Of a stretch of DNA of 32,000 nucleotides, positions 74 through 12,458 are shown in pieces. The stretch is taken from contig NZ_CP010341.1 in NCBI RefSeq assembly GCF_000940845.1, positions 2,580,001 to 2,612,000 of the forward strand, read 5' to 3'. The position numbers were made by a program, and so were the translations under genes. Source of the DNA: Propionibacterium freudenreichii subsp. freudenreichii. Its GTDB lineage: Bacteria; Actinomycetota; Actinomycetes; Propionibacteriales; Propionibacteriaceae. Every line of letters starts with the position of its first letter. Position 1 is the stretch's first letter. Under the pieces are notes generated by a model. The model saw only the letters and a list, made by a program, of their open reading frames with translations, made no database searches and was not told where the DNA came from.

Positions 74-1099
74 CTAGAACGGTGCCTCGTCGCGTGTCGC
101 CCACGGGTTCGGGGGCGACGGCGGCAAGGCTCCCCCGGGCAGCGGCAGGTTGGTGACGACGTAGAGGTTCAAGATGTCGTCGCGGTCCATGAACATGATC
201 TGGCTCCGCTTGCTGGCATCGAGAGCGTTGCCGAGCCAGTTGCGAGCCGCCTTGGTGATCTCCCCGCCCGCCACGATGAAGGCGTGGTCAACCAAGACCC
301 GGCGGTTGGTCTCAGGATCGAAGATCTCGTGTGCCAGCATCATGAGCGCTTGGTTGTGGATCTCGGCCATGTTGGCGTTGCCGGTCTTGGTGACGCCTGA
401 GGCGTCGAGCTTGCCCTTCTTAGCCTGGATGCCGAAGTAGAGGATGTGCTGGGTCGGCAAGGTGTAGCGCATCCAGATGTCCTTGCCGTACTCCAGCGCC
501 TTGTCCTTGTGCCCGGCTGCCGTGATGCGGTGGTAGCCCAACTGTCTGAACAGCGGGAGGAGCACTTCCTCGATGAGATCATCCTCGCTGCACTGGTCGA
601 GGTAGGCCGTCAAGAGCTGCCGCCGCTCCAGTTCAGCCTTGCTGAAGGGGCGGTGCGGATTGGCGGCAAGGACAGTGACGGTCTGTGTGCCGACGTGGCG
701 GAGGTAGCAGTGGTTGTCTTCGCCGTAGAACGCCTCGAAACCTTCGCGACCGAGTACCTCGTTGAGTTGTGCCAGCGCACGAGGACGGTCGGGGCCTTCG
801 TTGAGCCGATCGGCTGGACTCATGAGTTGGTCAATGAGACGGCAGAAGACATCCGGGGGACGTGTGGGGCCGTCATGGGGTTCGGCCAGCATCTGTTCCA
901 ACACGTCCGCAACCCAGCGATGGCGGGTCGAGCCGTCGTGGTGGAACTCGGTCTCCAACTCTTGAAAGAACTCGGTGATGTACATGCTGGAGCGATACGG
1001 GAAGTACTTGGCTTCGTCCTCGTTTTCGGCGTCGTCACGACCCACGTTGCCCACGATGAGTGACCCGAGGGCTTCGAGGTTGCGGCGACGGAACTTCAC
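74..1099 (-). CDS. Mrr-like restriction-endonuclease-domain protein (D...QxK variant of PD-(D/E)xK) with an unassigned ~160-aa N-terminal domain
   Basis: 341-aa ORF with a GTG start at 1097-1099. The C-terminal half has the helix 'DDLIEEVLLPLFRQLGY', then 'YGKDIWMRY' (Asp codon 479-481) and 'YFGIQAKKGK' (Q-A-K codons 419-427). This is the D...IQAK(R/K) layout I recall for the E. coli Mrr catalytic domain. It is followed by 'FIVAGGEITKAA'. The N-terminal half is not recognised. Confidence 0.6.
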   Translation of the reverse strand: MKFRRRNLEALGSLIVGNVGRDDAENEDEAKYFPYRSSMYITEFFQELETEFHHDGSTRHRWVADVLEQMLAEPHDGPTRPPDVFCRLIDQLMSPADRLNEGPDRPRALAQLNEVLGREGFEAFYGEDNHCYLRHVGTQTVTVLAANPHRPFSKAELERRQLLTAYLDQCSEDDLIEEVLLPLFRQLGYHRITAAGHKDKALEYGKDIWMRYTLPTQHILYFGIQAKKGKLDASGVTKTGNANMAEIHNQALMMLAHEIFDPETNRRVLVDHAFIVAGGEITKAARNWLGNALDASKRSQIMFMDRDDILNLYVVTNLPLPGGALPPSPPNPWATRDEAPF

Positions 1100-1221
1100 G
1101 GGACCATTGTTGCAAGCGGGACCGACAAACGACCGGACTCCGTGGGCTGCGGCTGCACCGTCTGCCCCGGCATGCGGTGCCGCATCGGCTGAGTGTCAGT
1201 GTCACGTGCTCGAATAGACCC
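1100..1221. promoter_or_regulatory. Divergent intergenic region between the Mrr-like gene and the HEPN-led cluster; probable bidirectional promoter/operator
   Basis: 122-bp gap between two divergent start codons. It contains the inverted repeat ATGCGG-TG-CCGCAT (1172-1185) and the tandem GTGTCAGTGTCA followed by CACGTG (1193-1208). No confident -10/-35 assignment was possible. Confidence 0.3.
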
Positions 1222-1983
1222 ATGACTGTGGACGTGCGGCGCGCTGTTCTTGACCGCCTCGGCACTGGAGGTGCCTCGCGCTTTGGCCGCCCATACCTCG
1301 TGGCAACCCTTCACCGGGAAGTTGGCTGTTCCGAGACGGAAGTGTGGGAGGCCTTCTGGGGTCTGGTCGGTGAGGGACTGGTCTACCTCGACACCGCCGG
1401 CCAGGGATCAGGCACTGACAACTGGCAGTGGCACCTATCGACAGATGGCCGAAGGGTGGCTGAGGGCGGCTCCTGGGAGCCACGCGACCCCGACGGCTAC
1501 ATGGATCGGGTTCGACGAGACATCCCCGACTTGGACGAACTCGTGGAACTTTACCTGACAGAGGCGTTGCAGTCGTTCAACGGGCGATGCTACCTCGCCA
1601 CCTCCGTCATGCTTGGAGTCGCCGCAGAACGTGCCTTCCTGGTCATGGCTGCGTCCTACGCCGCCTCTACTGTCTCGGGCGCGCCGGCTATGGCCAAGGA
1701 GTTAGCGCGGCCGCGAAGCAACTACTTCGCCTTGTGGACGGAGTTCCGAAAGCGCATCGAGCCGATCCGCCAGGATCTGCCGGATGGGCTCGCCGACTCT
1801 CTCACGCTGGATGCCATCGCTGACCTGATCCGCCTGACCCGCAACGAGGTTGGCCACCCCACTGGCCGCCAGATTGACGAGGACACCGCTCGAGTTCACC
1901 TGACGATTGCTCCGACATACATGCGGAAGATGCGTGCGCTGACCGTCCACTTCGCCCAGAGGCCGGCGGAGGTGAACGAATGA
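1222..1983 (+). CDS. HEPN-domain protein (Rx4H motif) with a possible N-terminal winged-helix module
   Basis: ATG at 1222 inside the 1060-1983 ORF; the upstream GTG extension overlaps the divergent gene and reads as nonsense. The motif 'LTRNEVGHP' (R-N-E-V-G-H, nt 1840-1857) matches the HEPN R[polar]xxxH signature near the C-terminus of an all-helical region ('LTEALQSFNGRCYLATSVMLGVAAERAF'). The N-terminal ~90 aa ('VWEAFWGLVGEGLVYLD...WQWHLSTDGRRVA') looks wHTH-like; this part is inference only. Confidence 0.6.
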   Translation: MTVDVRRAVLDRLGTGGASRFGRPYLVATLHREVGCSETEVWEAFWGLVGEGLVYLDTAGQGSGTDNWQWHLSTDGRRVAEGGSWEPRDPDGYMDRVRRDIPDLDELVELYLTEALQSFNGRCYLATSVMLGVAAERAFLVMAASYAASTVSGAPAMAKELARPRSNYFALWTEFRKRIEPIRQDLPDGLADSLTLDAIADLIRLTRNEVGHPTGRQIDEDTARVHLTIAPTYMRKMRALTVHFAQRPAEVNE

Positions 1984-3440
1984 CGCAACTGCCGATGCCG
2001 GTCCACGTCGGATCCGAACCACCTGAGCATTGGGACGACATAGAGGCGCGACAACAGCAGTATGGCGACGATGCGGCACCATACCTGCGTGACAAACAAC
2101 GGCCGTCCATCGCCAGGCCAGACATTGACTGGGGTGCGCTTGGATTCGAGCCACGTTGGGTGGGTTTCGACGCCGCAGACTGCGCGGCTGCGTTGCAGCC
2201 GAGCATTTTCTCTGGTCAAGGCGCCGACGAGTTCAACCGCTTCCGTCAAGGTGCTGAGCGGCGGGGCGAGACAGCTCTAGTGATCAGCCCGATCGGTGAG
2301 ACCGAAGGCGCGTCTCGCAACGTGCACAACGTCTTCGATCCACCTGTCAGCTCGGTCTCGATTGGGCAGACCTACACGAGCATCGACGGTCGCACAATCG
2401 GCAAGGGCGCGCGGGTTCGGGCCGCCTCCGACCTCGATGATGCGGACGGCCAGCTCGCGCTCCGACTACTCAGCGCCACGCAGGCACCTACGTGGCGCAG
2501 CCTGTCGCTCAGCGGTGCAGTGTTGGAGTCCGTGTACGGCCGCGAGGACCACCCTCCCGAAGGAACGCTGCTGCCTATCTTGGAGACGGAGCTGGGCGAA
2601 CCAGTTGTGGCGGTCTGGATATCGCCGGATGGTGTGGAGCGACGCTACGTCGTTCCGGTCGAGACTTCCTGGACGCTGTTGCTTCCGTGGCTACTGGAAC
2701 AAGCGCTCCCGGCGTTCGTTCCTGGGGCGATGCGCCGTGCGCGGCGTCCGTTGACCTCAGACAGGGATCTGATGACTCGGCGTGAACGGGACGCCCATGC
2801 CGCGCTGGCCGATCTGGAGCTGGACTACGCCGCGCGCCGCATCGAACTTGAGCGCCAGATCGAGGACGCACAGGATGCCGCCGTGGCGACCCGCGAGGGA
2901 CTTCTTTACGGTACTGGCCAGCAACTGGTCAGCGCCGTTCGCGCCGTCTTCGAGACCGCTGGAATCGAGGTTGTTGACCTTGACGAGAAGCTCGGAGACA
3001 CCAAGAACGCCGACCTGCTCTGTACCTACGGAGGCTTGTCGCGATTGGTCGAGGTGAAGTCAGCGAACGGGAGCGCTCCCGAACGTGCCTACCAAGACTT
3101 GATCCGGCACCTACGTGAGTGGCCGAGCTTGCCGGGCGCTTCTCCGATCGACGGAGGCGCGCTTGTGATCAGTCATGATCTCCGCAAGGTGCCTCTTGAT
3201 CGGAGGCCGACGCCATACGCGAGGCCGGAGTTTTTGTTGGCGCAGACCGAGCCGGTGATCTCCGCGCTGGAACTCTTCGCGGCCTGGCGCGACGAGGACG
3301 TGGAAGCGATTCGTCAGCTGCTGTTCGGCTCAAGTGCCGCACCTGTGGGTAACTCGGCGGGGCAGGCCGGTGCCGCGGTTGTCGACGTCGATGCCGCCTC
3401 ATCCAGTCGCATCCTGCGACACTGGTTTGGGCGGCGCTGA
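1980..3440 (+). CDS. Coiled-coil protein with a C-terminal PD-(D/E)xK (restriction-endonuclease-fold) motif; N-terminal ~270 aa unassigned
   Basis: The ATG at 1980 overlaps the upstream TGA (ATGA) and has GGAGGTG 7 nt upstream, indicating translational coupling. The helical, charged segment 'RERDAHAALADLELDYAARRIELERQIEDAQDAA' is followed by 'AVRAVFETAGIEV...NADLLCTYGGLSRLVEVKS' (Asp codon 3012-3014; E-V-K 3051-3059), a classic D-x(n)-ExK arrangement. Confidence 0.6.
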   Translation: MTQLPMPVHVGSEPPEHWDDIEARQQQYGDDAAPYLRDKQRPSIARPDIDWGALGFEPRWVGFDAADCAAALQPSIFSGQGADEFNRFRQGAERRGETALVISPIGETEGASRNVHNVFDPPVSSVSIGQTYTSIDGRTIGKGARVRAASDLDDADGQLALRLLSATQAPTWRSLSLSGAVLESVYGREDHPPEGTLLPILETELGEPVVAVWISPDGVERRYVVPVETSWTLLLPWLLEQALPAFVPGAMRRARRPLTSDRDLMTRRERDAHAALADLELDYAARRIELERQIEDAQDAAVATREGLLYGTGQQLVSAVRAVFETAGIEVVDLDEKLGDTKNADLLCTYGGLSRLVEVKSANGSAPERAYQDLIRHLREWPSLPGASPIDGGALVISHDLRKVPLDRRPTPYARPEFLLAQTEPVISALELFAAWRDEDVEAIRQLLFGSSAAPVGNSAGQAGAAVVDVDAASSSRILRHWFGRR

Positions 3441-3718
3441 GTCAGGACCCGCTCAGCGCGGCCAATCCGAGCAGGGCCAGACAAGCGCCTACCGGGCAGG
3501 TGGGGTCTTCTGTGCGTAAGACATAACACTGCCGGACAACCTCGCCACCGAGGCCGAGAACCTCCATGAGTATGTCGTCGTCCCCGAACTGCTCCGCCTC
3601 AAGTACCGTTAACGCTGCAAGCAGTTCAAGGCCGTGATGACCTCCCTAGTTCCGAACCGGCGGGAGTTGGAGTAGAGCAGCAAGCACTCGGCGCAACAAC
3701 AGGCAGGCATTGACGCAC

Positions 3719-6292
3719 ATGGCATTTCTGGGCAAGACGAAGCGGGCGGTCCAACAGTTTCCGTCGCCGGAGGAGCTGTACCTCAGCGGGACTCTGCCAC
3801 GCACCACGGACGCTGTCGACTCTCTCTGGCTGCATCAGGGCGACGTCATCCGTGCCTACGCCGAGAACCACGTGGACACCCCGGACCTCGCGCTGGAGCT
3901 ACCGACGGGAACCGGCAAGACCCTGCCAGGTCTGCTCGTCGGGGAGTGGGTGCGACGTAAGGCCGAAGGTCCTGTTATCTACGCCACACCGACCAAGCAG
4001 CTCGCGCGTCAGGTGGCGGCGACCGCTGAGCGCGAGGGCATTGCGGCCGCGCTCCTGATCGGAAGTGCCAAGTACTGGGATCCGGCGGATGAGGCATCGG
4101 TCGAGGGTGGCGAGGCAATTGGGATCACGACTTACAGTGCGGTCTTCAACAGCAGTCCCAAGCTGCCCGAGCCCAGGCTCCTGATCTTCGACGATGCTCA
4201 CGCTGGCGAGCAGTTCGTGGGCAATGAGTATGGCATCAGCATCCGTCGCCACGACGATGAGGACGCATACCTCGAGGTCCTGGAAGGGCTGAAGCCGTTC
4301 CTGTCTGGACTCCTCATCCAGCGACTTGAAGGCGACCCCGATCCCGGCGCTCACCACCAAGTGCGCCTAATCCTGCCTGCGGTCGACCAGACGGCGCTGA
4401 CGAAGCTCGACGCCGTTTTGGCAGGTCTGCCCAAGCCTCACTCGTACAAGCTCGCTATGATCCGGCCGGGCCTGGCAGCCTGCTGTGTCTACCTGTCCTA
4501 CGGCGGTATCCAGATCCGCCCGATGATCCCGCCGACGTACGAGAACCGTGTCTTCGCTCGCGCCAAGCAGCGCATCTACCTGTCGGCGACTCTAGGCTCT
4601 GGCGGGGAACTGGAGCGCGCCTTCGGTCGGCGTGAGATCGTGCGAATGCCGCTTCCGACCAAGACACCTCCTCGCTCTGGCCGGAGGCTGTTCGTCTTCC
4701 CTGACTTGGTCAAGGACGGAGACGCAGTGGAGCTGACGAAGCAGATAGTCGGCCTCACCGACAAGGCGCTCGTGCTCAGCCAGGAGACCATCGCCAACAC
4801 CGAGGCGACAGCGAAGGCACTGGCCGGCAACGACGTGCCGGTCATGGGACGGGACGATCTAGAACGGAACGGCTTGGAGTCATTCGCGAAGGCTTCGAGT
4901 GGAGTACTCGGGCTGGCCAATCGTTATGACGGACTCGATCTGCCCGGCAAAGCCTGCCGGATTGTTGTCCTTGACGGGAGACCGGACGCAGTCGGGCTAC
5001 AGGAGCGATTCCTGAGTGAGCGGGCAGAGGCCAACGCAGCCCTCGCAGAGCGCCTCCGTACCCGCATCGTGCAGGGCGCCGGGCGCTGCACCCGTGGCCC
5101 GAACGACTACGCCGTGGTCGTCGTGCTCGGTTCGGACATCATGAAGTACTTCTCTAGGCCCGAGAACCTCAAGGCACTCGAACCGGAGCTACAGGCCGAG
5201 GTTGAGTTCGGTTGGCAGAACAGCAGGGGCACCGATCCCGACGAGATAATCGAGAACGTCGGAGTGTTCCTCGAACACGGTGCCGACTGGCGTAAGCAGG
5301 GTGAGCCCATGGTGGCCGAGTTCCGGCAGGACGCCGTCAAAGTCGAGGCTCCTGGAACAGATGCTCTCGGCAAGGCCGCGGCGCTTGAGGTTGAGGCCTG
5401 GCAGCTGGCATTCGGGGGCGACTGGATAGGTGCCAGCGAGAAGATGCAGGAAGCGGTGCCCCATGTCGGCCCTGAGGCAACGCGCGGCTACCGCGGTCTG
5501 CTGCTGTACATCGCAGGTGTGTGGCTGCACCTTGGAGCCCAGGATGAAACCCAGCGATCACGTGCCCGACAGCTCGTTCGAGAGGCCGCTCTCGCGGCCA
5601 ATCGCGGCACCTGGCTCAAGGAGATGCGAGAACTGCCTGGCGCCGAGGAGGTTCCGCTTGTCCTCGAGGACATCGTGGCTGTGAACCAGGTGGTCGCCCG
5701 CCTGCGTGGACAGATCAAGCCGAAGCGGATCAACACAGCCCTCACCGAGATGCAGGAATCACTCGACCAGGATGAAGCCATCAGGTATGAACGCGGTTTG
5801 ACGACTCTCGGGTCGTTCCTCGGGGCGGAGGCTTCTAAGCCGAAGGGCCAGGGCCGCTGCGACTCCGCCTGGGTATGGGGCACCGCTATGTGGATGACCA
5901 TCGAGGCGAAGTCGGAGGAGCACAACGGCGGCCTGCTTCCGCTGAAGGACGTTCGCCAGGCCAACACTCAGCTCGACCAGCTGGCGGCGGACAGAGGGAT
6001 GGATCACCCGCCGGCGGGTAGTCCAGCGATCATCGTGTCGGACAAACTGTCGGTGGACCCGCAGCATGCTCAAGCGGCGAACCCCAACGTCTACCTGACA
6101 TCGACCAGGGTCGTGGGGGAGATAGCCAGTGACGTTGCCGTCGTCTGGGCGGACCTGCTTACGACCGCCATCGGTATTGCCTCCGAGCATGCCCAGAAGC
6201 AGCACGTCCGGTCTGTCATGACCGAGAACGGCTGTCTGCCGAGTCAGGTGATTGATCGGCTCGCGCAGAACCGGATCAGGCCCGGCCACTGA
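3719..6292 (+). CDS. SF2 helicase of DinG/XPD (Rad3)-like type lacking Fe-S cysteines, fused to a C-terminal PD-(D/E)xK-like module
   Basis: The ORF track starts at TTG 3710; the first ATG is at 3719. Helicase motifs seen: motif I 'LPTGTGKT' (GTGKT at 3908-3922), Ia 'YATPTKQLARQV', II 'LLIFDDAH' (DDAH at 4190-4201), III 'SAT' (4583-4591). 'GLANRYDGLDLPGKACRIVVLDGRP' and motif VI 'QGAGRCTR...DYAVVVVLGSD' (5072-5095) resemble the DinG Helicase_C_2 pattern. There are no Cys residues between motifs I and II. The C-terminal ~150 aa carry 'GRCDSAWVWGTAMWMTIEAKSEE' (Asp 5861-5863; E-A-K 5903-5911). Confidence 0.8.
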   Translation: MAFLGKTKRAVQQFPSPEELYLSGTLPRTTDAVDSLWLHQGDVIRAYAENHVDTPDLALELPTGTGKTLPGLLVGEWVRRKAEGPVIYATPTKQLARQVAATAEREGIAAALLIGSAKYWDPADEASVEGGEAIGITTYSAVFNSSPKLPEPRLLIFDDAHAGEQFVGNEYGISIRRHDDEDAYLEVLEGLKPFLSGLLIQRLEGDPDPGAHHQVRLILPAVDQTALTKLDAVLAGLPKPHSYKLAMIRPGLAACCVYLSYGGIQIRPMIPPTYENRVFARAKQRIYLSATLGSGGELERAFGRREIVRMPLPTKTPPRSGRRLFVFPDLVKDGDAVELTKQIVGLTDKALVLSQETIANTEATAKALAGNDVPVMGRDDLERNGLESFAKASSGVLGLANRYDGLDLPGKACRIVVLDGRPDAVGLQERFLSERAEANAALAERLRTRIVQGAGRCTRGPNDYAVVVVLGSDIMKYFSRPENLKALEPELQAEVEFGWQNSRGTDPDEIIENVGVFLEHGADWRKQGEPMVAEFRQDAVKVEAPGTDALGKAAALEVEAWQLAFGGDWIGASEKMQEAVPHVGPEATRGYRGLLLYIAGVWLHLGAQDETQRSRARQLVREAALAANRGTWLKEMRELPGAEEVPLVLEDIVAVNQVVARLRGQIKPKRINTALTEMQESLDQDEAIRYERGLTTLGSFLGAEASKPKGQGRCDSAWVWGTAMWMTIEAKSEEHNGGLLPLKDVRQANTQLDQLAADRGMDHPPAGSPAIIVSDKLSVDPQHAQAANPNVYLTSTRVVGEIASDVAVVWADLLTTAIGIASEHAQKQHVRSVMTENGCLPSQVIDRLAQNRIRPGH

Positions 6293-6320
6293 GGGGGAGC
6301 GGCAAGTCCTCCCAGCGTGA

Positions 6321-6605
6321 TCACAGCAAGTCCTTCGTGTGCGTCCACACGGTCATCCGGTGCACGCCGAACCGCCGGGAGATCGACACCACGCTCTCGC
6401 CGTTCGCTCGGGCAGTTCGGATAGCGTCCACTTGGCTCTCCGTCAGCGGTGTTCTAGCTCGTCTCCTAGGGTTCGCCACGACGCCGAGGTCGTCCTCGAC
6501 GGCAGCTTCCGGCTCATCGCCGAGACCGAGTTTCGCCTGCTTCCACGCGGAACCAAGCCGCTCGAACCTCTGCCAGGTGTTCGGTTTGAGTCCACTCGCG
6601 TCCAC
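6321..6605 (-). CDS. Small helix-turn-helix protein (resolvase/Hin-type HTH); possibly a relic of a recombinase or mobile-element gene
   Basis: 94-aa ORF with a GTG start and no internal ATG before the HTH. 'RRRARTPLTESQVDAIRTARANGESVVSISRRFGVHRMTVWTHTKD' fits the GRP..L...q...i....G.s...ia...gv.r.TvyR pattern of serine-recombinase C-terminal HTH domains. No resolvase catalytic domain is present. Confidence 0.45.
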   Translation of the reverse strand: MDASGLKPNTWQRFERLGSAWKQAKLGLGDEPEAAVEDDLGVVANPRRRARTPLTESQVDAIRTARANGESVVSISRRFGVHRMTVWTHTKDLL

Positions 6606-6697
6606 AATTCTTGAGGTGCACGGGGCCCGTTGTGCGAGGGCCGGTGCACATGGCTTCCCCGGATCCCCCGCTCACTCTGTGCGCCCCCGCCCAGTTC

Positions 6698-6731
6698 ATG
6701 GTTGTGGTGGTGGGACGCGTCGAAACCAACC
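6698..6731. repeat. Interspersed repeat family 3, copy 1 (ATGGTTGTGGTG..GACGCGTCGAAACCA.CC)
   Basis: 30 of 34 positions are identical to 26315-26348. It contains the 8-bp palindrome GACGCGTC. Confidence 0.7.
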
Positions 6732-6750
6732 GGGACGCGCTGATCCCGCA

Positions 6751-6800
6751 GGATAGGTGCGGATAAAGCACCGTCTTTGGTGCCTAATCCGCACCTATCC
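6751..6800. repeat. Interspersed palindromic repeat family 1, copy a (imperfect hairpin)
   Basis: GGATAGGTGCGGATAAAGCACC-gtcttt-GGTGCCTAATCCGCACCTATCC. The arms are 22 nt with 2 mismatches. It is homologous to 17696-17743 and 26079-26126. Confidence 0.8.
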
Positions 6801-6840
6801 TCGAGTCCCCGGCCATGGCACCGCACGCCGGGCAGGCCCG

Positions 6841-6890
6841 GGATGGGGAGGACCTTTACGTCGTCTAACCTGCAAAGGTCCTCCCCATCC
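6841..6890 (-). terminator. Perfect 17-bp-stem hairpin immediately downstream of the ltrA-family gene; putative intrinsic terminator
   Basis: GGATGGGGAGGACCTTT (6841-6857) and AAAGGTCCTCCCCATCC (6874-6890) are exact reverse complements, with a 16-nt loop. It begins 10 nt past the stop at 6901-6903. There is no U-tract, so terminator function is inferred only. Confidence 0.5.
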
Positions 6891-6900
6891 GCCGGTCCAC

Positions 6901-8102
6901 CTATGCGTCGCGCGACTGGCGCCGCAGCTCGGCGAAGTACAGGCGCTCGAAGACCACGAGTACGACGAGCACCATCGTCACCGCCGCCAGTCCCCCGAGG
7001 GCGGGCAGCCTGATGATCGCGGGCGCGAGCCCCACCAGGATGACCAGGGCACAGGCACGCGCGACGTTCCTGGCGCGCTGCACGCGGAGGTCAAAGATTA
7101 GGTGCCCGATGAGGTGGAGCGCCACGCCACCCACGAGGCACAGGCCGTAGAACGCACCGAGGGACTCGTCCGTGCCGGCCAGGCGCAGGGCACCCTCCAC
7201 GCCGACCGCCGCGAGGAGGACCCCGCAACCAGGGGAAAGTGGCCATAGACGTAGGCCTCAAAGGCGATGCGGATACGTTCGGTGCCCGCCAACTCGGCAA
7301 CGCGTCGCCCCGTGGCCGCCGCCACGAGATCGAAGTAGAGCCACCACAGGCAGATCGCGAGCACGACACCCAGCCCGGCCGCCAGCAGCAGCGGGATCGT
7401 GAGCGGATGCTCCCCGGCCCCGACCCCGACGGCCACCAGCGATTCGCCCAGGACGATCAGCACGAACAGCTCGAAGCGCTCCGTCCAATGGGAGGCGCTG
7501 TAGATGCGCCAACTCCCGTGCCGCGACGTGAGGTAGACCGACAGCCACTCCCCCAGCATTGCGATGGCGAACAATGCGGTCTGCGCCTGCCCGCCCACCA
7601 CGACGCCGATCACCAGCAGCACGGCCTGCACGAGCAGTGGCAACCGGGAAATGGCGATCTGCCGGCGCAGTCCGGCGTCATCCCGGGCGGCGATCGTGTA
7701 GACGACGAGATGAACCAGCCGCACGAACAGATACGCACTCACCAGGACGACGGGCCCGGGCAGCCCCTCGCCGGCGCTGTCCCATGCCGACGGAATCGCC
7801 AGGGCTATGACGAAGACGCCGACGAGTGCGAGGCCGAACCCGACCGCGCCGAGTCCGACATCGGCGCGCAGCTGGTTCCCCAGCCAGACGAACGTGCACC
7901 AGGTCCACCACAGCATCCCGAACAGGATCAGGCCGTGCGGCACCCCCTCGGCACCGTGCTCGTGGGAGATGAGGTCGGTGACCTGGGTGACGGCGAACAC
8001 GTACACGAGGTCGAAGAACAGCTCGAAGGTCGTGGCCCCCTCACCCGCGTGTGGACGAGCGTGCCGCAGCCCCCGCGCCCGGGCAGGTAATGCACCATCC
8101 AT
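6901..8102 (-). pseudogene. ltrA: Low-temperature-requirement protein A (LtrA) family membrane protein, interrupted by a 1-nt frameshift
   Basis: The 7098-8102 ORF carries the LtrA-type N-terminus 'FELFFDLVYVFAVTQ' and multiple TM segments, but turns into non-hydrophobic nonsense after 'AYVYGHFPLVAG'. The hydrophobic continuation ('VLLAAVGVEGALRLAG...LVVLVVFERLYFAELRRQ') lies in the frame of ORF 6901-7200. The frames join if one base is added to the C4/G4 run at 7221-7224, giving about 400 aa. Confidence 0.7.
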
Positions 8103-8805: not shown

Positions 8806-10020
8806 TCAGCCCTCGGTCACCGAACCCAGGATCACCGACAGTTCGGCGAAGCCACTGGCCGGATAGCTGGCGTACTGCGACGTGGCCGCACGGTCGGGCG
8901 TGATCGTGCCGGTTGCCGCCAGCAATTCCTGGGTGAGCATGCGCAGCTCGAGGCGCGCCAACGGCGCACCCGGGCAGACGTGGATCCCGGCCCCGTAGAG
9001 CAGGTTGTCCTCGCGCGGACGATCAAGGCGGAACTCATTGGGATCGCCGAACACGTCCTCGTCGCGGTTGGCCGATGCCCACAGGATCGTCAAGCGCTCC
9101 CCCGGCTCAAACTGGCGTCCGCCGATCTCGGTGGGCTCGGCCACCACGCGACGGTTCGAGATGAGTGGCGGATGAATGCGCAGGATCTCGTCCACCGCAT
9201 CGTCGAGCGTGGCAGGCGAGCCGGCCTTGGCACGCATCAGGCTCTGCACATCGGGATGTTCGGCAAGGTGGTCGACGACGATGCCCGCGGCGGCCGAGAT
9301 GGTGCTCAGCTCGCCCACCGTCCAGTTGCGCAGGATCGACACCAACTCGCCGTCATTCAGCACTCGGCCGTCGACCTGCTCCTTCATCAGGCGGGTGGTC
9401 AGGTCGTCCGGGGCGGCGTCGCCCATGGCGCGTCGCTTGTCGAGCAGGCCGGTGATGTAGCCATCGAACTGCTCGGCCACGGCGGCGGTGGCGGCCCGGT
9501 CGCCGGACGCGGTGGCCCGGCGGTTGCTCAGCGTCCACTCACGCAACGGTTCGCGCAGGCGCTCCGGCCATCCCAGGTAGGCCGACTGCACCTGCAGGGC
9601 GAAGGGCTCGGCCAGGTCGTTGACGATGTCGGCCGGCTTGTCGCGGGGCAGCGCGGCGATCAGGTCCGCGGCGATCGCCCGGCAGGCCGGCTCGAACGCA
9701 TCCACGACCTCCTGGGTGAAGTAGCGGTCGACGATCGTGCGGTACACGGTGTGTTCAGGCGGGTCCATGCCGTTGGGCACCGCGACGTGCTTCGAGACGA
9801 CCGCGGAGAAGGTGCGGGTCTGGGTGGCGGCGCGCAACACATCGTCGTGGCGCAACAACGACCAGCCCATCTGCTCGCTGTGGGCCACGGGGCACCGGGC
9901 GCGCAGCGCGTCGTAGGCGGCGATCTGGTTGTCCAGCACCTCGGGGGCGCGAGGATCCCATTCGTACGACTGCGGTTCGTGCGGGGCGGGGTTGTCGCGA
10001 GAGGGAGTGTCGGAAGTCAT
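8806..10020 (-). CDS. Cytochrome P450
   Basis: Heme-thiolate loop 'YGAGIHVCPGAPLARLE' (FxxGxxxCxG type), 'ILRIHPP' (ExxR region) and an overall length of ~400 aa. The ATG at 10020 ('MTSDTPSRD') is preferred over the ORF-track start at 10068. Confidence 0.9.
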   Translation of the reverse strand: MTSDTPSRDNPAPHEPQSYEWDPRAPEVLDNQIAAYDALRARCPVAHSEQMGWSLLRHDDVLRAATQTRTFSAVVSKHVAVPNGMDPPEHTVYRTIVDRYFTQEVVDAFEPACRAIAADLIAALPRDKPADIVNDLAEPFALQVQSAYLGWPERLREPLREWTLSNRRATASGDRAATAAVAEQFDGYITGLLDKRRAMGDAAPDDLTTRLMKEQVDGRVLNDGELVSILRNWTVGELSTISAAAGIVVDHLAEHPDVQSLMRAKAGSPATLDDAVDEILRIHPPLISNRRVVAEPTEIGGRQFEPGERLTILWASANRDEDVFGDPNEFRLDRPREDNLLYGAGIHVCPGAPLARLELRMLTQELLAATGTITPDRAATSQYASYPASGFAELSVILGSVTEG

Positions 10021-10278
10021 TGCCGGGCCTTTCGGGGTGGAGGTGAACAGGCACAGGTCGTATGTCACCCGCCACGTGGGGTCGCCCAGCTAGCGCGACG
10101 GGCCGGGCTTCCGGCCACGCGTGCTCCCATGGCGCCCCCACGTCGCGGCGACACATCTACTGGGACGCTATAGCGGCGTTGGGGCAGCGTCAACGGATGG
10201 ACGACGCCCGTCGGCAGATCAGCCGCGGGGACTCTCCGGGCACCCGGCGCCTCGGCCTCCCCAGGAAAGCTGTTGGGT

Positions 10279-10314
10279 GGTCAGTTGTGCGGCTATGACG
10301 CCGCACAACTGACC
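10279..10314. repeat. Hairpin repeat family 2, perfect copy (also a likely terminator for the aldo/keto reductase gene)
   Basis: GGTCAGTTGTGCGGC-tatgac-GCCGCACAACTGACC forms a perfect 15-bp stem. The core CAGTTGTGCGGC.ATGACGCCGCACA is shared with 26187-26239 and 26401-26453. It sits 39 nt downstream of the minus-strand stop at 10353. Confidence 0.75.
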
Positions 10315-10352
10315 AGCTTGGGGGTTCCCCAGCCGGCGCCCGGGCGCGACGC

Positions 10353-11216
10353 TTACTTGCCGCTGTACACGGGGAACTTGGTGTACTTGCCGTAGTCCGT
10401 CTGGTCGAGCCCGCGCAGCGTGGCCATGTCGTCGTCCGAGATCACGAAGTCGACCTGCGCGTTGGCGCGCATGTGGTCGGGGTTGGCGGTCTTCGGCAGC
10501 GGCACGGTGCCCAGCTGCAGGGCGTAGCGGATCGACAGCTGCGGCACGGTGACGTGGTTGTCCTCGGCGATGTCGCGCACGCGCTCGTTGCCCATCATCT
10601 CGCCGTGGGCCATGGGCGAATAGGCCTCCACGAGGATGTCCTTCGACGTGCAGTAGTCGATGAGTTCCTGGGGCGTATTGCCGATGTGCACCAACAGCTG
10701 GTTCACCTGCGGCGCCACCTGGGCCGAACCCAGGATGTTGTCGACGTCCTCCTTCAGGAAGTTCGAGATGCCGATCGAGCGAACCTTGCCCTCGTGGTGG
10801 GCCTTCTCCAGCGCACGCCATGCCTCCCGGTTGCCCTCGTCGTAGTTGCCGCCGCGGAAGTCGTTCCAGGGCTGCGGGCTGTGGATCATCATGAGGTCGA
10901 CGTAGTCCAGGCCGAGCTTGGCCAGCGAGCCGTCGATCGCGGCAACCGCCTGGTCGAAGTCCTTGATCTCGGCGGCCAGCTTGGTGGAGACGAACAGTTG
11001 GTCACGGGCGACATCGGCGGTGCGCACGCCCTCGCCGACGCCCTGCTCGTTGCCGTAGGCCTGGGCGGTATCGATATTGCGGTAGCCGATCTGCACGGCA
11101 TCACGCACCGCCTGGGCGGCCCGGTCATCGTCGATGAACCATGTGCCCAATCCGAGCTTGGGGATCTTCTCGCCATTGGACAGGTCAAATGTCTCGTTCA
11201 GGATCATGGTTCGCAT
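10353..11216 (-). CDS. Aldo/keto reductase (2,5-diketo-D-gluconate reductase-like)
   Basis: 'IPKLGLGTWF', 'IDTAQAYGNEQGVG', 'LFVSTKL', 'VRSIGISNF' and 'LPKTANPDHMRAN' are typical AKR motifs. The start is ATG 11216 ('MRTMILNE'), or ATG 11207, which has better spacing to the GAAGGA Shine-Dalgarno sequence. Confidence 0.9.
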   Translation of the reverse strand: MRTMILNETFDLSNGEKIPKLGLGTWFIDDDRAAQAVRDAVQIGYRNIDTAQAYGNEQGVGEGVRTADVARDQLFVSTKLAAEIKDFDQAVAAIDGSLAKLGLDYVDLMMIHSPQPWNDFRGGNYDEGNREAWRALEKAHHEGKVRSIGISNFLKEDVDNILGSAQVAPQVNQLLVHIGNTPQELIDYCTSKDILVEAYSPMAHGEMMGNERVRDIAEDNHVTVPQLSIRYALQLGTVPLPKTANPDHMRANAQVDFVISDDDMATLRGLDQTDYGKYTKFPVYSGK

Positions 11217-11414
11217 TCCTTCTTCTTGGGGTTTCTGGCTCGTGAGGGCGTATCTGGGCTTGTCAGGGTCTAGTTGGTCGGGGAACTGGCGGCGTGCCGG
11301 ACGCGACGAGTGCGCGCGTCGGCAGGTGCTCGCGTCGACTGGCAGGGACGTCACGGGGGTGCGCGCCTCCACCAGCATCAACCACGCGGACGCGCCACAT
11401 CATCCCCGGCGCGC

Positions 11415-12458
11415 TCACTGGGCCTGCCAATGGGGCAGGAACTCACCGTCGGCCTTGCGGCAGGTCACTGCCGTGCCGTCGCTGGCGGTGCCCGTGGAGC
11501 CCTCGTCCAAGCAGATGCCGCCCACCTTCGTGGACCCCACCTGGCTGGTGGCCTGCGACCAGGCGCTGCCGATCGGATTGCCGCCCGTGACGGTGACCGT
11601 CGGGCCGGGCGCGGTCGTGGTGGTGGTCACCGGGGGTGCCGTGACGGTGTTGGTCGTCGTGGTGGTGGCGGTCACCGTGGGCGAGGGCGACGACGATCCG
11701 CCCAGGCCCACCGCCCCCACGACGGTGCCGACGACCAATGCGAGGATCACGAGCAGCACCCACACGATGCGGCGTCCGGTCTTGTTGGACCCGCCGTTGC
11801 CCTGCGGCTCGGGGCCGGTGGGCTCCTGGTAGCCGGTGCCCGGATAGTTCGGTGGGCCGGGATAGTCGGGGCCCGACGGATAGCCGCCCCGGCCGGAGTA
11901 GTTCCCCCGGTCGGAATACTGTGCGCCGCCGTAACCCGCACCGGCCTCGACGCCGGGCAGCACCTTGGTGGGTTCCGGGCCGCCCTGCGAGGACGACGCC
12001 CGGTAACCCTCGGAATAGGGGTCATCGCGATAGCCACTGCGGTAGGGGTCACCCGGGTAGCCGGCGGCGCTGAGCGGGACGGTCGGATCGGCCGGTTGGC
12101 CATTGACCGGCCCGGAGAACGGACGCGTCGGCTCATCCGAAGGCAGGCTCACCGTCGGATCAGCCGGATAACCATTCACCGGCCCCGAAAACGGACGCGT
12201 CGGCTCATCCGAAGGCAGGCTCACCGTCGGATCAGCCGGATAACCATTCACCGGCCCCGAAAACGGACGCGTCGGCTCATCCGAAGGCAGGCTCACCGTC
12301 GGTTCGTTCGGCGCGGGGATGTACACCGTCGGCTCGGCATCGTCGTTCGACGGATCCCGTCCACCCACCGGCGGGAGCTGCATGGTGCGCTCCACGTCGG
12401 TCTCGTCATCGCGGCGACGATGACGCGGATCGTGATCCCGCGGCGTCCCCTGCGTCAT
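11415..12458 (-). CDS. Membrane-anchored Pro/Gly/Tyr-rich protein with three 24-aa tandem repeats and a Thr-rich linker
   Basis: ATG at 12458 ('MTQGTPRDH'). The unit 'PTVSLPSDEPTRPFSGPVNGYPAD' repeats 3 times. There is a single TM segment 'IVWVLLVILALVVGTVVGAV', then 'TVTATTTTTNTVTAPPVTTTTTAPGPTVTV' and a C-terminal Cys pair. No family was recognised. Confidence 0.6.
   Translation of the reverse strand: MTQGTPRDHDPRHRRRDDETDVERTMQLPPVGGRDPSNDDAEPTVYIPAPNEPTVSLPSDEPTRPFSGPVNGYPADPTVSLPSDEPTRPFSGPVNGYPADPTVSLPSDEPTRPFSGPVNGQPADPTVPLSAAGYPGDPYRSGYRDDPYSEGYRASSSQGGPEPTKVLPGVEAGAGYGGAQYSDRGNYSGRGGYPSGPDYPGPPNYPGTGYQEPTGPEPQGNGGSNKTGRRIVWVLLVILALVVGTVVGAVGLGGSSSPSPTVTATTTTTNTVTAPPVTTTTTAPGPTVTVTGGNPIGSAWSQATSQVGSTKVGGICLDEGSTGTASDGTAVTCRKADGEFLPHWQAQ
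12100..12302. repeat. 72-bp tandem repeat, ~2.8 copies, inside the Pro-rich protein gene
   Basis: Units start at 12100, 12172 and 12244. Units 2 and 3 are identical over the ~59 nt they share, and unit 1 differs at a few positions. The period is a multiple of 3, so the repeat is in-frame. Confidence 0.9.

Follow-up and report, generated by a model that had tools for sequence, protein, structure and literature searches.

A coupled HEPN-like and PD-(D/E)xK gene pair in Propionibacterium freudenreichii as a candidate composite defence cassette of two separable modules

Introduction

The question raised by this locus is whether two overlapping genes of Propionibacterium freudenreichii subsp. freudenreichii, here named B and C, form one functional system, and of which kind. 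They lie in a stretch of 32,000 nucleotides (RefSeq assembly GCF_000940845.1, contig NZ_CP010341.1, positions 2,580,001 to 2,612,000, forward strand), which is called the window throughout and whose first letter is position 1 of all coordinates below. An earlier note on this DNA had read B as a HEPN protein and C as a protein with a restriction endonuclease (REase) fold behind a coiled coil, had proposed that the two are translationally coupled and probably form a complex, and had not recognised such a pairing.

Our preferred reading, to which we give even chances, is that B-C is a small mobile composite defence cassette combining a DNase and an RNase, made of two modules that each work alone elsewhere. 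The defence reading draws on catalytic motifs kept beyond the clade, on the predicted folds, on the coupling of the genes, on their defence-rich and mobile context, low G+C content and sparse distribution, on the fusion of a C-type domain to AbiTii and on the literature on DUF4145. From these lines of evidence we infer the RNase and DNase activities, the defence role, the sensor role of the N-terminal domain of C, its oligomerisation, and the target and trigger of B-C.

Results

Gene B (1222..1983, plus strand) extends from an ATG at 1222 to a TGA at 1981-1983 and encodes a protein of 253 amino acids with a winged helix-turn-helix (wHTH) and a HEPN-like, DUF4145-type domain. Gene C (1980..3440, plus strand) extends from an ATG at 1980 to a TGA at 3438-3440 and encodes 486 amino acids, comprising an N-terminal alpha/beta domain, a long helix, a PD-(D/E)xK nuclease domain and a basic tail. 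A longer open reading frame (ORF) for B starting at GTG-1060 was ruled out, as the homologs are 253 amino acids long with the N-terminus MT.DVRR. The two genes meet in a translational-coupling junction (1968..1983, plus strand), in which GGAGGTG at 1968-1974 precedes the stop-start overlap ATGA at 1980-1983, both elements in agreement with the earlier note. The 4-bp overlap, as ATGA or GTGA, is kept in 11 of 11 B-C junctions from other genomes, whose proteins share 56-88% identity with B and C of the window, and a purine-rich stretch resembling a Shine-Dalgarno (SD) sequence lies upstream of the C start in most of them. A 4-bp overlap is by itself common in operons; that of B-C is above chance because it is conserved in all 11 junctions at this degree of protein divergence. 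Its strict retention argues for selected co-expression, and the proposed translational coupling is borne out by the conservation of the junction across loci.

Protein C matches a hypothetical protein of P. freudenreichii at 100% identity and is a member of a large family. An exhaustive profile search found 671 cluster representatives (50% identity) at E ≤ 1e-3 and 197 at E ≤ 1e-30, and almost all full-length matches have the same architecture of ~450-500 amino acids. The AlphaFold2 (AF2) model of C has a mean predicted local distance difference test (pLDDT) score of 77.8. Its nuclease domain (residues 313-450; 2916..3329, plus strand), which carries D335, D345, E358-V-K360, H377 and W381, was recognised by Foldseek in both structure collections searched. 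Matches in the PDB were the Hjc resolvases 2eo0, 1gef, 4tkd and 2wcz (probability 0.75-0.92) and also EcoO109I; those in BFVD were restriction endonuclease, Mrr-like, VRR-NUC and resolvase folds (best E 9e-5 and 5e-4, probability 1.0), the modest E-values being those of a query made of several domains. AF2 places strands at residues 330-333, 346-350 and 353-361, so that D345 (nt 3012-3014) opens the second of these and E358-V-K360 (nt 3051-3059) lies within the third, which is the classic PD-(D/E)xK arrangement. Among C-family members with 27-50% identity to the window protein, D335, D345 and E358 are kept in 94-97%, H377 and W381 in at least 91% (range 91-97%) and K360 in 84%. Both the REase fold and the conservation of D345, E358 and K360 (84-97%), on which the earlier note had made its call depend, are thus confirmed. 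The Pfam family Mrr_cat (PF04471, gathering score 21 bits) reached 17.5 and 14.6 bits in two divergent C members and 14.1 bits with the family consensus, all below threshold, and gave no match to the window protein.

Ahead of the nuclease domain, AF2 predicts a single helix of 44 residues (residues 267-310; 2778..2909, plus strand), a candidate coiled-coil oligomerisation element. Of the coiled coil claimed in front of the REase fold, the long helix is therefore present in the model, whereas its coiled-coil character is indicated by weak Pfam matches to the coiled-coil family KfrA_N in 5 of 40 C-family members. At the other end of the protein, residues 453-486 form a disordered tail (pLDDT <50), in which a variable low-complexity linker precedes a terminal motif of the RRWFxRR type. 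In the window this basic, Trp-containing motif reads RHWFGRR (residues 480-486; 3417..3437, plus strand). It is conserved in 99 of 118 close members and also occurs in many divergent C homologs (range P0121-P0389) and in solo copies; it could be a docking peptide, a contact to nucleic acid or membrane, or an autoinhibitory element.

The alpha/beta N-domain of C (residues 1-255; 1980..2744, plus strand) is modelled by AF2 with a pLDDT of 87-94 for residues 130-250 and lower values for residues 1-120, and has C68, R87, R95, R162, R221, Y223 and W237 as conserved residues. No sequence relative of it was found in any library searched. Foldseek returned a weak resemblance to class-I glutamine-amidotransferase-like domains (3fij, E 2.8e-3, TMt 0.37), which we treat as a lead only. 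A protein of 674 amino acids from the search for representatives, P0389, joins AbiTii (E 1.6e-27), a C-type N-domain, a disordered stretch and a predicted transmembrane (TM) helix, without the nuclease. Because the N-domain is fused to AbiTii there in the absence of the nuclease, it is a separable and portable module of conflict systems. The earlier suggestion that the first ~270 residues of C could be a sensor or DNA-binding module held as far as a distinct, portable domain is concerned, but its remote homology stayed at a weak fold match with no sequence relative.

For protein B, the AF2 model built on a 41-sequence alignment has a mean pLDDT of 85.7. Residues 1-80 (1222..1461, plus strand) form a wHTH domain, which Foldseek matched to MarR, ArsR, GntR, AspA and SSV1 F-93 with a probability of ~1.0 and with TMt 0.55-0.66 for small wHTH proteins; sub-threshold Pfam matches to HTH_20 and TrmB cover the same N-terminus. 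The wHTH-like start of B that had been noticed earlier is hence well founded. Residues 106-245 (1537..1956, plus strand) make up an all-alpha, HEPN-like domain, delimited by AF2 secondary structure, invariant columns and sub-threshold Pfam matches. Helices are predicted at residues 106-120, 124-147, 193-204 and 220-245, and the RNxxGH motif lies in the loop between 193-204 and the last long helix, 220-245. This catalytic-type Rx4H motif, R207-N-E-V-G-H212 (1840..1857, plus strand), is nearly invariant, with RNxx[G/A]H found in 118 of 120 close homologs of B and in 41 of 42 distant ones. In homologs of 26-84% identity, R204, R207, N208, G211, H212 and P213 around the motif are invariant, as are Y111, E114, G132, A134 and E136 in the first two helices of the domain.

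The top Pfam family for B was DUF4145 (PF13643, gathering score 23.1 bits), with sub-threshold matches in 3 of 41 members (best E 0.035) and in 9 of 39 (best E 0.002); the homolog from M. marseillense scored 13.1 bits, again below the gathering score. Single weak matches in B members to HEPN_Swt1 and Ribonuc_2-5A, which are other models of the HEPN superfamily, and one homolog named 'DUF4145 domain-containing' by its source point in the same direction, while an hhalign comparison of B with a single Ymh HEPN protein placed the motif on the RNExxH of the latter in an alignment that was not significant. B is very probably a wHTH protein with a DUF4145-like HEPN domain, as judged from its sequence and model. 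The HEPN call of the earlier note is accordingly supported by the invariant motif, the all-helical domain and the rank of DUF4145, but not by any match above threshold.

The upstream regions of B-C loci cannot be aligned except for a block of ~27 nt that ends 3-4 nt 5' of the start codon. This promoter-proximal block (1192..1218, plus strand; cTGTCrGTC-N5-TGrTCGAATrG) is conserved in 12 of 12 aligned B-C loci and, among metagenomic B-C loci, follows the strict pattern in 13 of 17 with a near-match in the remaining 4. It is absent from distant B lineages and is thus specific to the B-C clade. Within it, TGnTCGAAT (1207-1215) resembles an extended -10 element and ends 6 nt before the ATG at 1222, a position that would fit a transcript start at A1222 and suggests a leaderless B-C mRNA. 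Leaderless mRNAs are common in Actinobacteria. A simple sigma-70 consensus promoter scan returned no match. Further upstream, ~40 nt before the B start, an imperfect palindrome (1152..1183, no strand assigned; 15-nt arms, 80% complementary) is a weakly supported candidate operator, which was not conserved in the alignment of the upstream regions of other loci. The operon may end at a hairpin overlapping the C stop codon (3430..3463, plus strand; 12-nt arms, 92% complementary), which is followed by a second terminator-like site at 3488-3504 within a gap of 270 bp between C and the next gene.

These flanking elements raise the possibility that B is mainly a regulator, whose wHTH domain binds the upstream block or the palindrome and represses the operon, with the HEPN-like domain serving for dimerisation or ligand sensing, and which thereby sets the amount of the C nuclease. 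The wHTH fold, the conserved clade-specific block directly upstream of B, the palindrome at 1152-1183 and the first position in the operon, which is typical of autoregulators, would all agree with this. However, the Rx4H motif keeps its R, N and H throughout the family, even in the many B lineages without a C that could be regulated, solo copies of C do without B, and the palindrome is not conserved. We therefore regard a mainly regulatory B as distinctly unlikely.

How firmly are the two genes linked? A scan of 185,579 species genomes yielded 16 loci of the close C subfamily, which is thus sparse. B lies directly upstream of C in 9 of these, including L014, where both genes are frameshifted. 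In L015, B is partial and the adjoining C frameshifted; C is intact but unaccompanied by B in four loci (L001, L004, L005 and L012), frameshifted and likewise without B in L013, and reduced to a remnant of 70 amino acids in L016, on a Kribbella chromosome. As L013, L014 and L015 are long-read metagenome-assembled genomes (MAGs), their frameshifts may be sequencing or assembly errors rather than decay. In a neighbour-joining tree the four loci with solo C fall inside the B-C group, which indicates that B was lost more than once. Overall, C usually stands alone. Its more distant clade (~40% identity) occurs on 24 actinobacterial plasmids; no B homolog stood beside C in the four plasmid records inspected, and the plasmid matches of B were on four records other than those with C.

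Seen from B, for which 80 metagenomic loci were surveyed, the link is clade-bound. C follows B in 18 of 20 loci in which B has at least 75% identity, the two close copies without C being L029 and L031, in 0 of 2 at 67-71% and in 0 of 58 at ≤58%. Clustering of all neighbouring ORFs revealed no recurrent partner for the distant B homologs. The adjacency of homologs elsewhere that the earlier note had asked about is therefore real among close homologs of B and absent among distant ones. B is more conserved than C within the B-C clade. A B relative on a Mycobacterium plasmid adjoins an unrelated gene of 295 amino acids, and another, in an Agrobacterium island, has no partner and is flanked by an AddAB-like operon, AbiE and CBASS. 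Two candidate partners were rejected: the 295-aa neighbour of the M. marseillense B homolog is unrelated to the C profile by hhalign, and a 253-aa gene upstream of C on a S. anulatus plasmid is unrelated to B by BLASTP and weakly HNH-like.

Several observations on single loci accompany this survey. Two distant B homologs (L060, L073) contain in-frame stops. Close B-C homologs of 56-81% identity occur outside Actinomycetota in an Armatimonadota MAG (L002) and a Planctomycetaceae MAG (L015) and reflect either recent horizontal transfer or mis-binned contigs. In L053, L075, L076 and L083, a distant solo B has a Dcm-type cytosine methyltransferase and a Vsr-like endonuclease within ~1-3 kb, which matches the reported link of DUF4145 HEPN domains to restriction-modification loci. 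Of the loci with C but no B, L004 has a Ymh-family HEPN protein (PF09509, E 8e-13; 8829-10061) directly after C on the same strand, and L012 has a superfamily 1 (SF1) helicase (AAA_30/UvrD_C_2; 5274-7967) directly before C on the same strand. The presence of a second, unrelated HEPN family beside C in L004 hints that the combination of C with a HEPN protein arose more than once.

Taken together, B and C are autonomous modules that were coupled once and could each be lost afterwards. Since both genes are autonomous and each has been lost independently of the other, an obligate B-C complex or a toxin-antitoxin (TA) relation is unlikely; this pattern lends no support to the probable complex proposed earlier, and the toxin reading implied by the suggested comparison of B alone with B plus C fits the distribution poorly. 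A TA pair, with a HEPN toxin B neutralised by C or a nuclease toxin C neutralised by B, could be argued from the HEPN toxins of HEPN-MNT systems, from the overlapping bicistronic genes typical of type II TA loci and from the PIN/Phd and AbiE loci that neighbour some records. Yet there is neither an MNT protein nor a small antitoxin, C has 486 amino acids and an intact active site, and intact solo C and solo B are common, either partner having been lost within the clade, which would be lethal for a true TA system. We consider a TA pair very improbable.

The same autonomy would be expected if B and C were separate defence systems of one gene each that only happen to occupy the same operon, without interaction or dependence, their overlap being a compaction of the mobile cassette. 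That B and C stand alone in most lineages and are each lost without the other, that B has diverged less than C within the clade and that defence islands routinely juxtapose unrelated systems all speak for such a sharing. On the other hand, the overlap, the SD-like stretch and the cassette-specific promoter block are kept at 56-88% protein identity, and C follows B in nearly all loci with a close B although the flanks change, a constancy that chance neighbours would not show. We judge mere sharing of an operon to be rather unlikely and continue with a composite cassette as the preferred reading.

The window has a G+C content of 66.9%, and its first ~6.5 kb stand at 0.63-0.64 compared with 0.67-0.70 beyond. 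The G+C content at third codon positions (GC3) is 0.71-0.77 in B, C and the helicase gene D (3710-6292), compared with 0.83-0.94 in the metabolic genes to the right (LtrA, P450, aldo-keto reductase, amylase, permease and catalase). Low G+C and GC3 suggest that the segment is an acquired island, which contains a gene for a 341-aa protein, B-C, a DinG-like helicase of the PDC-S28 type and a small HTH gene. Neither convincing flanking repeats bounding a mobile cassette nor, as an integration site, a tRNA were found in the window. Two intergenic hairpins at the step-up of G+C and GC3 (6750-6801, 23-nt arms, 91%; 6841-6890, 17-nt arms, 100% complementarity) may act as terminators or mark where the acquired island ends. 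Next to them, an LtrA-family gene (7098-8102, minus strand) matches only positions 2-264 of 356 of its profile and is overlapped by a 99-aa ORF on the same strand (6901-7200), so that the region 6901-8102 may contain a frameshifted gene or a sequencing error.

Neither island neighbour appears to belong to the system. The 341-aa protein (74-1099, minus strand), divergent from B, has a weak match to AbiJ_NTD3 (E 0.069) and, near its C-terminus, a stretch DIW...GIQAKKGK that resembles a D...QxK REase-type motif. It may represent another defence gene, but was rejected as a component because no other locus has it together with B-C. D (3710-6292, plus strand) encodes a DinG-like helicase of 860 amino acids, which matches the PADLOC candidate PDC-S28 over its full length (E 3.7e-94) and carries a nuclease-like D...EAK motif at its C-terminus. 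A three-gene system with this helicase was likewise rejected, as L010 is the only locus outside the window with D after C (Nocardioides lijunqiniae; helicase at 9663-12239, 70% identity to D of the window); the PDC-S28 helicase was probably inherited along with the island and is not part of the system.

Elsewhere the flanks of B-C vary by locus and are dominated by defence and mobility genes; at other B-C or C loci they include GmrSD_N/NsnA, a type II methyltransferase, Ppl/LmuB-like ABC ATPases, an IrrE-type peptidase, DUF4238, a Ymh HEPN protein, integrases and PIN/Phd. The hosts include Propionibacterium, Micromonospora, Streptomyces and mycobacterial plasmids. DUF4238 proteins of the PADLOC 'DUF4238-Pers' type were seen beside C-family genes in three independent loci, one of them on a Streptomyces anulatus plasmid (L005, 5599-7865; L011, 5443-7593; L019, 3827-4897), and may represent a recurrent association.

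This distribution also bears on a housekeeping role, in which C would be a structure-specific nuclease of the resolvase or NucS-like kind, active in recombination, repair or the resolution of plasmid multimers, and B would assist it by binding DNA. Hjc resolvases are indeed the closest folds to C in the PDB, the C homolog P0172 is named 'DUF91 domain-containing' (NucS-like) by its source, and plasmid copies of C are found near ParA and replication-relaxation genes. A housekeeping gene would, however, hardly be so patchy, with its close subfamily at 16 loci in 185,579 species genomes, nor would it be expected to combine an atypical composition with variable, defence-rich flanks and an N-domain fused to AbiTii; there was also no NucS_C Pfam match. 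We regard housekeeping or plasmid maintenance as hardly credible.

Discussion

We hypothesize that C would form the core of the preferred composite cassette, as a self-contained and self-regulated DNase of the immune type that is probably oligomeric. The N-domain would either detect a trigger or keep the nuclease inactive, the long helix would oligomerise the protein and the Mrr/Hjc-like PD-(D/E)xK domain would cut DNA. B would be an accessory, in which the winged helix tethers the HEPN RNase to nucleic acid or to a partner. HEPN enzymes are generally dimeric, and B may likewise dimerise through its DUF4145-type domain to form the Rx4H RNase site. It would thereby add an abortive-type arm at the RNA level, as has been proposed for HEPN modules in restriction operons. 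In one actinobacterial clade, a single and probably leaderless transcript together with coupled translation would ensure that both nucleases are made together. B and C may touch, but neither would need the other to be tolerated.

A bolder version would have C found an undescribed class of autonomous immune nucleases, with a new sensor domain shared with AbiTii/TM proteins, a coiled coil and a REase core, and would have B and C form a physical DNase-RNase complex. The activation or the cleavage products of one nuclease, read by the winged helix of B, would then license the other, giving a two-tier response, first to DNA and then to RNA, from two single-gene systems. We put this forward as speculation that is unlikely in its full extent.

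A number of results weigh against a composite defence cassette. B and C had no significant match in Pfam, NCBIfam, PADLOC or PHROGs. At E ≤ 1, PADLOC v2 returned 0 families for either protein, its only match in the window being the neighbour at 3710-6292; searches of the PDB with single sequences and profiles gave nothing significant, and the B and C family consensus did no better against Pfam than single sequences. A tblastn search of 50,697 phage records gave no match and indicated no particular target. All HEPN Pfam matches of B are below threshold, and in the whole-protein Foldseek search the top 50 were filled by wHTH proteins, so that the HEPN fold was not seen directly. The fold assignment of the C N-domain is weak. 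On some plasmids C lies near ParA (par) and rep/replication-relaxation genes, which fits a role in plasmid biology too, and the independent loss of B or C could mean that the two do not cooperate at all.

If a defence function is confirmed, B-C would enlarge the set of immune systems known from Actinobacteria, a group that has been less thoroughly explored in this respect than E. coli. The C family (671 clusters) is mainly actinobacterial and often plasmid-borne, it has an intact nuclease site, and its N-domain is reused in proteins of the abortive-infection type. The same nuclease with and without a coupled HEPN RNase would then also constitute a natural experiment on what the RNA-level arm contributes.

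With regard to known systems, B-C stays below every curated threshold applied, namely those for DUF4145, Mrr_cat, DUF4263/Shedu, NucS, PADLOC and the CoCoNuT partners, and no described system of this composition was found in the literature. Shedu (SduA) is an immune nuclease that acts on its own; its N-terminal sensor domains vary, and its core is of the PD-(D/E)xK (DUF4263) type. C resembles it in combining an N-terminal non-catalytic domain with a C-terminal NucS/Hjc-like PD-(D/E)xK domain, and in being a patchily distributed single gene of defence islands and plasmids. In contrast to Shedu, it has a different N-domain, a long helix and a basic tail, and neither C nor 40 homologs had a Pfam or PADLOC match to Shedu/DUF4263 at E ≤ 1, so that by sequence C is not a Shedu member. 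With the Mrr/Hjc/NucS branch, C shares the core fold, the D...E-x-K residues on consecutive strands and the weak Mrr_cat matches; it differs in being below every family threshold, in lacking an Mrr_N or NucS N-terminal domain and in its domain context. NucS/EndoMS (PF01939) had no Pfam match in C or its homologs, and the N-domain of C is an α/β fold of a different kind. Unlike in HEPN-MNT TA systems, the partner of B is a nuclease of 486 amino acids instead of an MNT protein, and both genes occur alone.

On the side of the HEPN protein, RAZR / PD-T7-4, a zinc finger joined to a DUF4145 HEPN RNase, acts in defence (PMC13017515), and Ishtar comprises HEPN anti-plasmid proteins (bioRxiv 10.64898/2026.07.06.735840). 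In both, the R and H residues of the DUF4145-type HEPN domain are needed for defence (PMC13017515; bioRxiv 10.64898/2026.07.06.735840). B is similarly small, combines a domain for binding nucleic acid or a partner with a DUF4145-type HEPN domain and is a single, autonomous gene in most of its lineages, but it has a winged helix in place of the zinc finger of RAZR or the β-rich domain of Ishtar, and its domain order is reversed relative to Ishtar. The CnuE effectors of CoCoNuT systems, which belong to Type IV restriction superoperons, join an elongated wHTH to a HEPN RNase and in many cases also contain a coiled coil (PMC11090510). B has the same order of wHTH and HEPN, and tandem RNA and DNA nucleases with coiled coils are common to both as a general idea. 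CoCoNuTs, however, are defined by their McrB-type GTPase, McrC and CnuH helicase partners (PMC11090510). No homologs of McrB, McrC or CnuH are present in the window and none are conserved at other B-C loci, the downstream DinG-like helicase (PDC-S28) accompanying B-C only in the window and in L010.

The closest precedent dates from 2013, when DUF4145 HEPN domains fused to REase or helicase modules and located within restriction-modification operons were catalogued (Anantharaman et al., PMC3710099), HTH fusions of DUF4145 being listed as well (PMC3710099). The combination of HEPN and REase, which the earlier note had not recognised, is therefore not new as a theme. Like those modules (PMC3710099), B-C pairs an Rx4H HEPN domain, most similar to DUF4145, with a nuclease of the REase fold in a defence context. 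Unlike in them, each domain has a protein of its own and the two are coupled in translation, the 486-aa protein C with its uncharacterised N-domain and long helix takes the place of the REase module, and B is below the DUF4145 gathering score. What is new here is the large unannotated C family with its portable N-domain, the separate but coupled B and C genes with a conserved promoter block of their own, and the natural presence or absence of B around the same nuclease.

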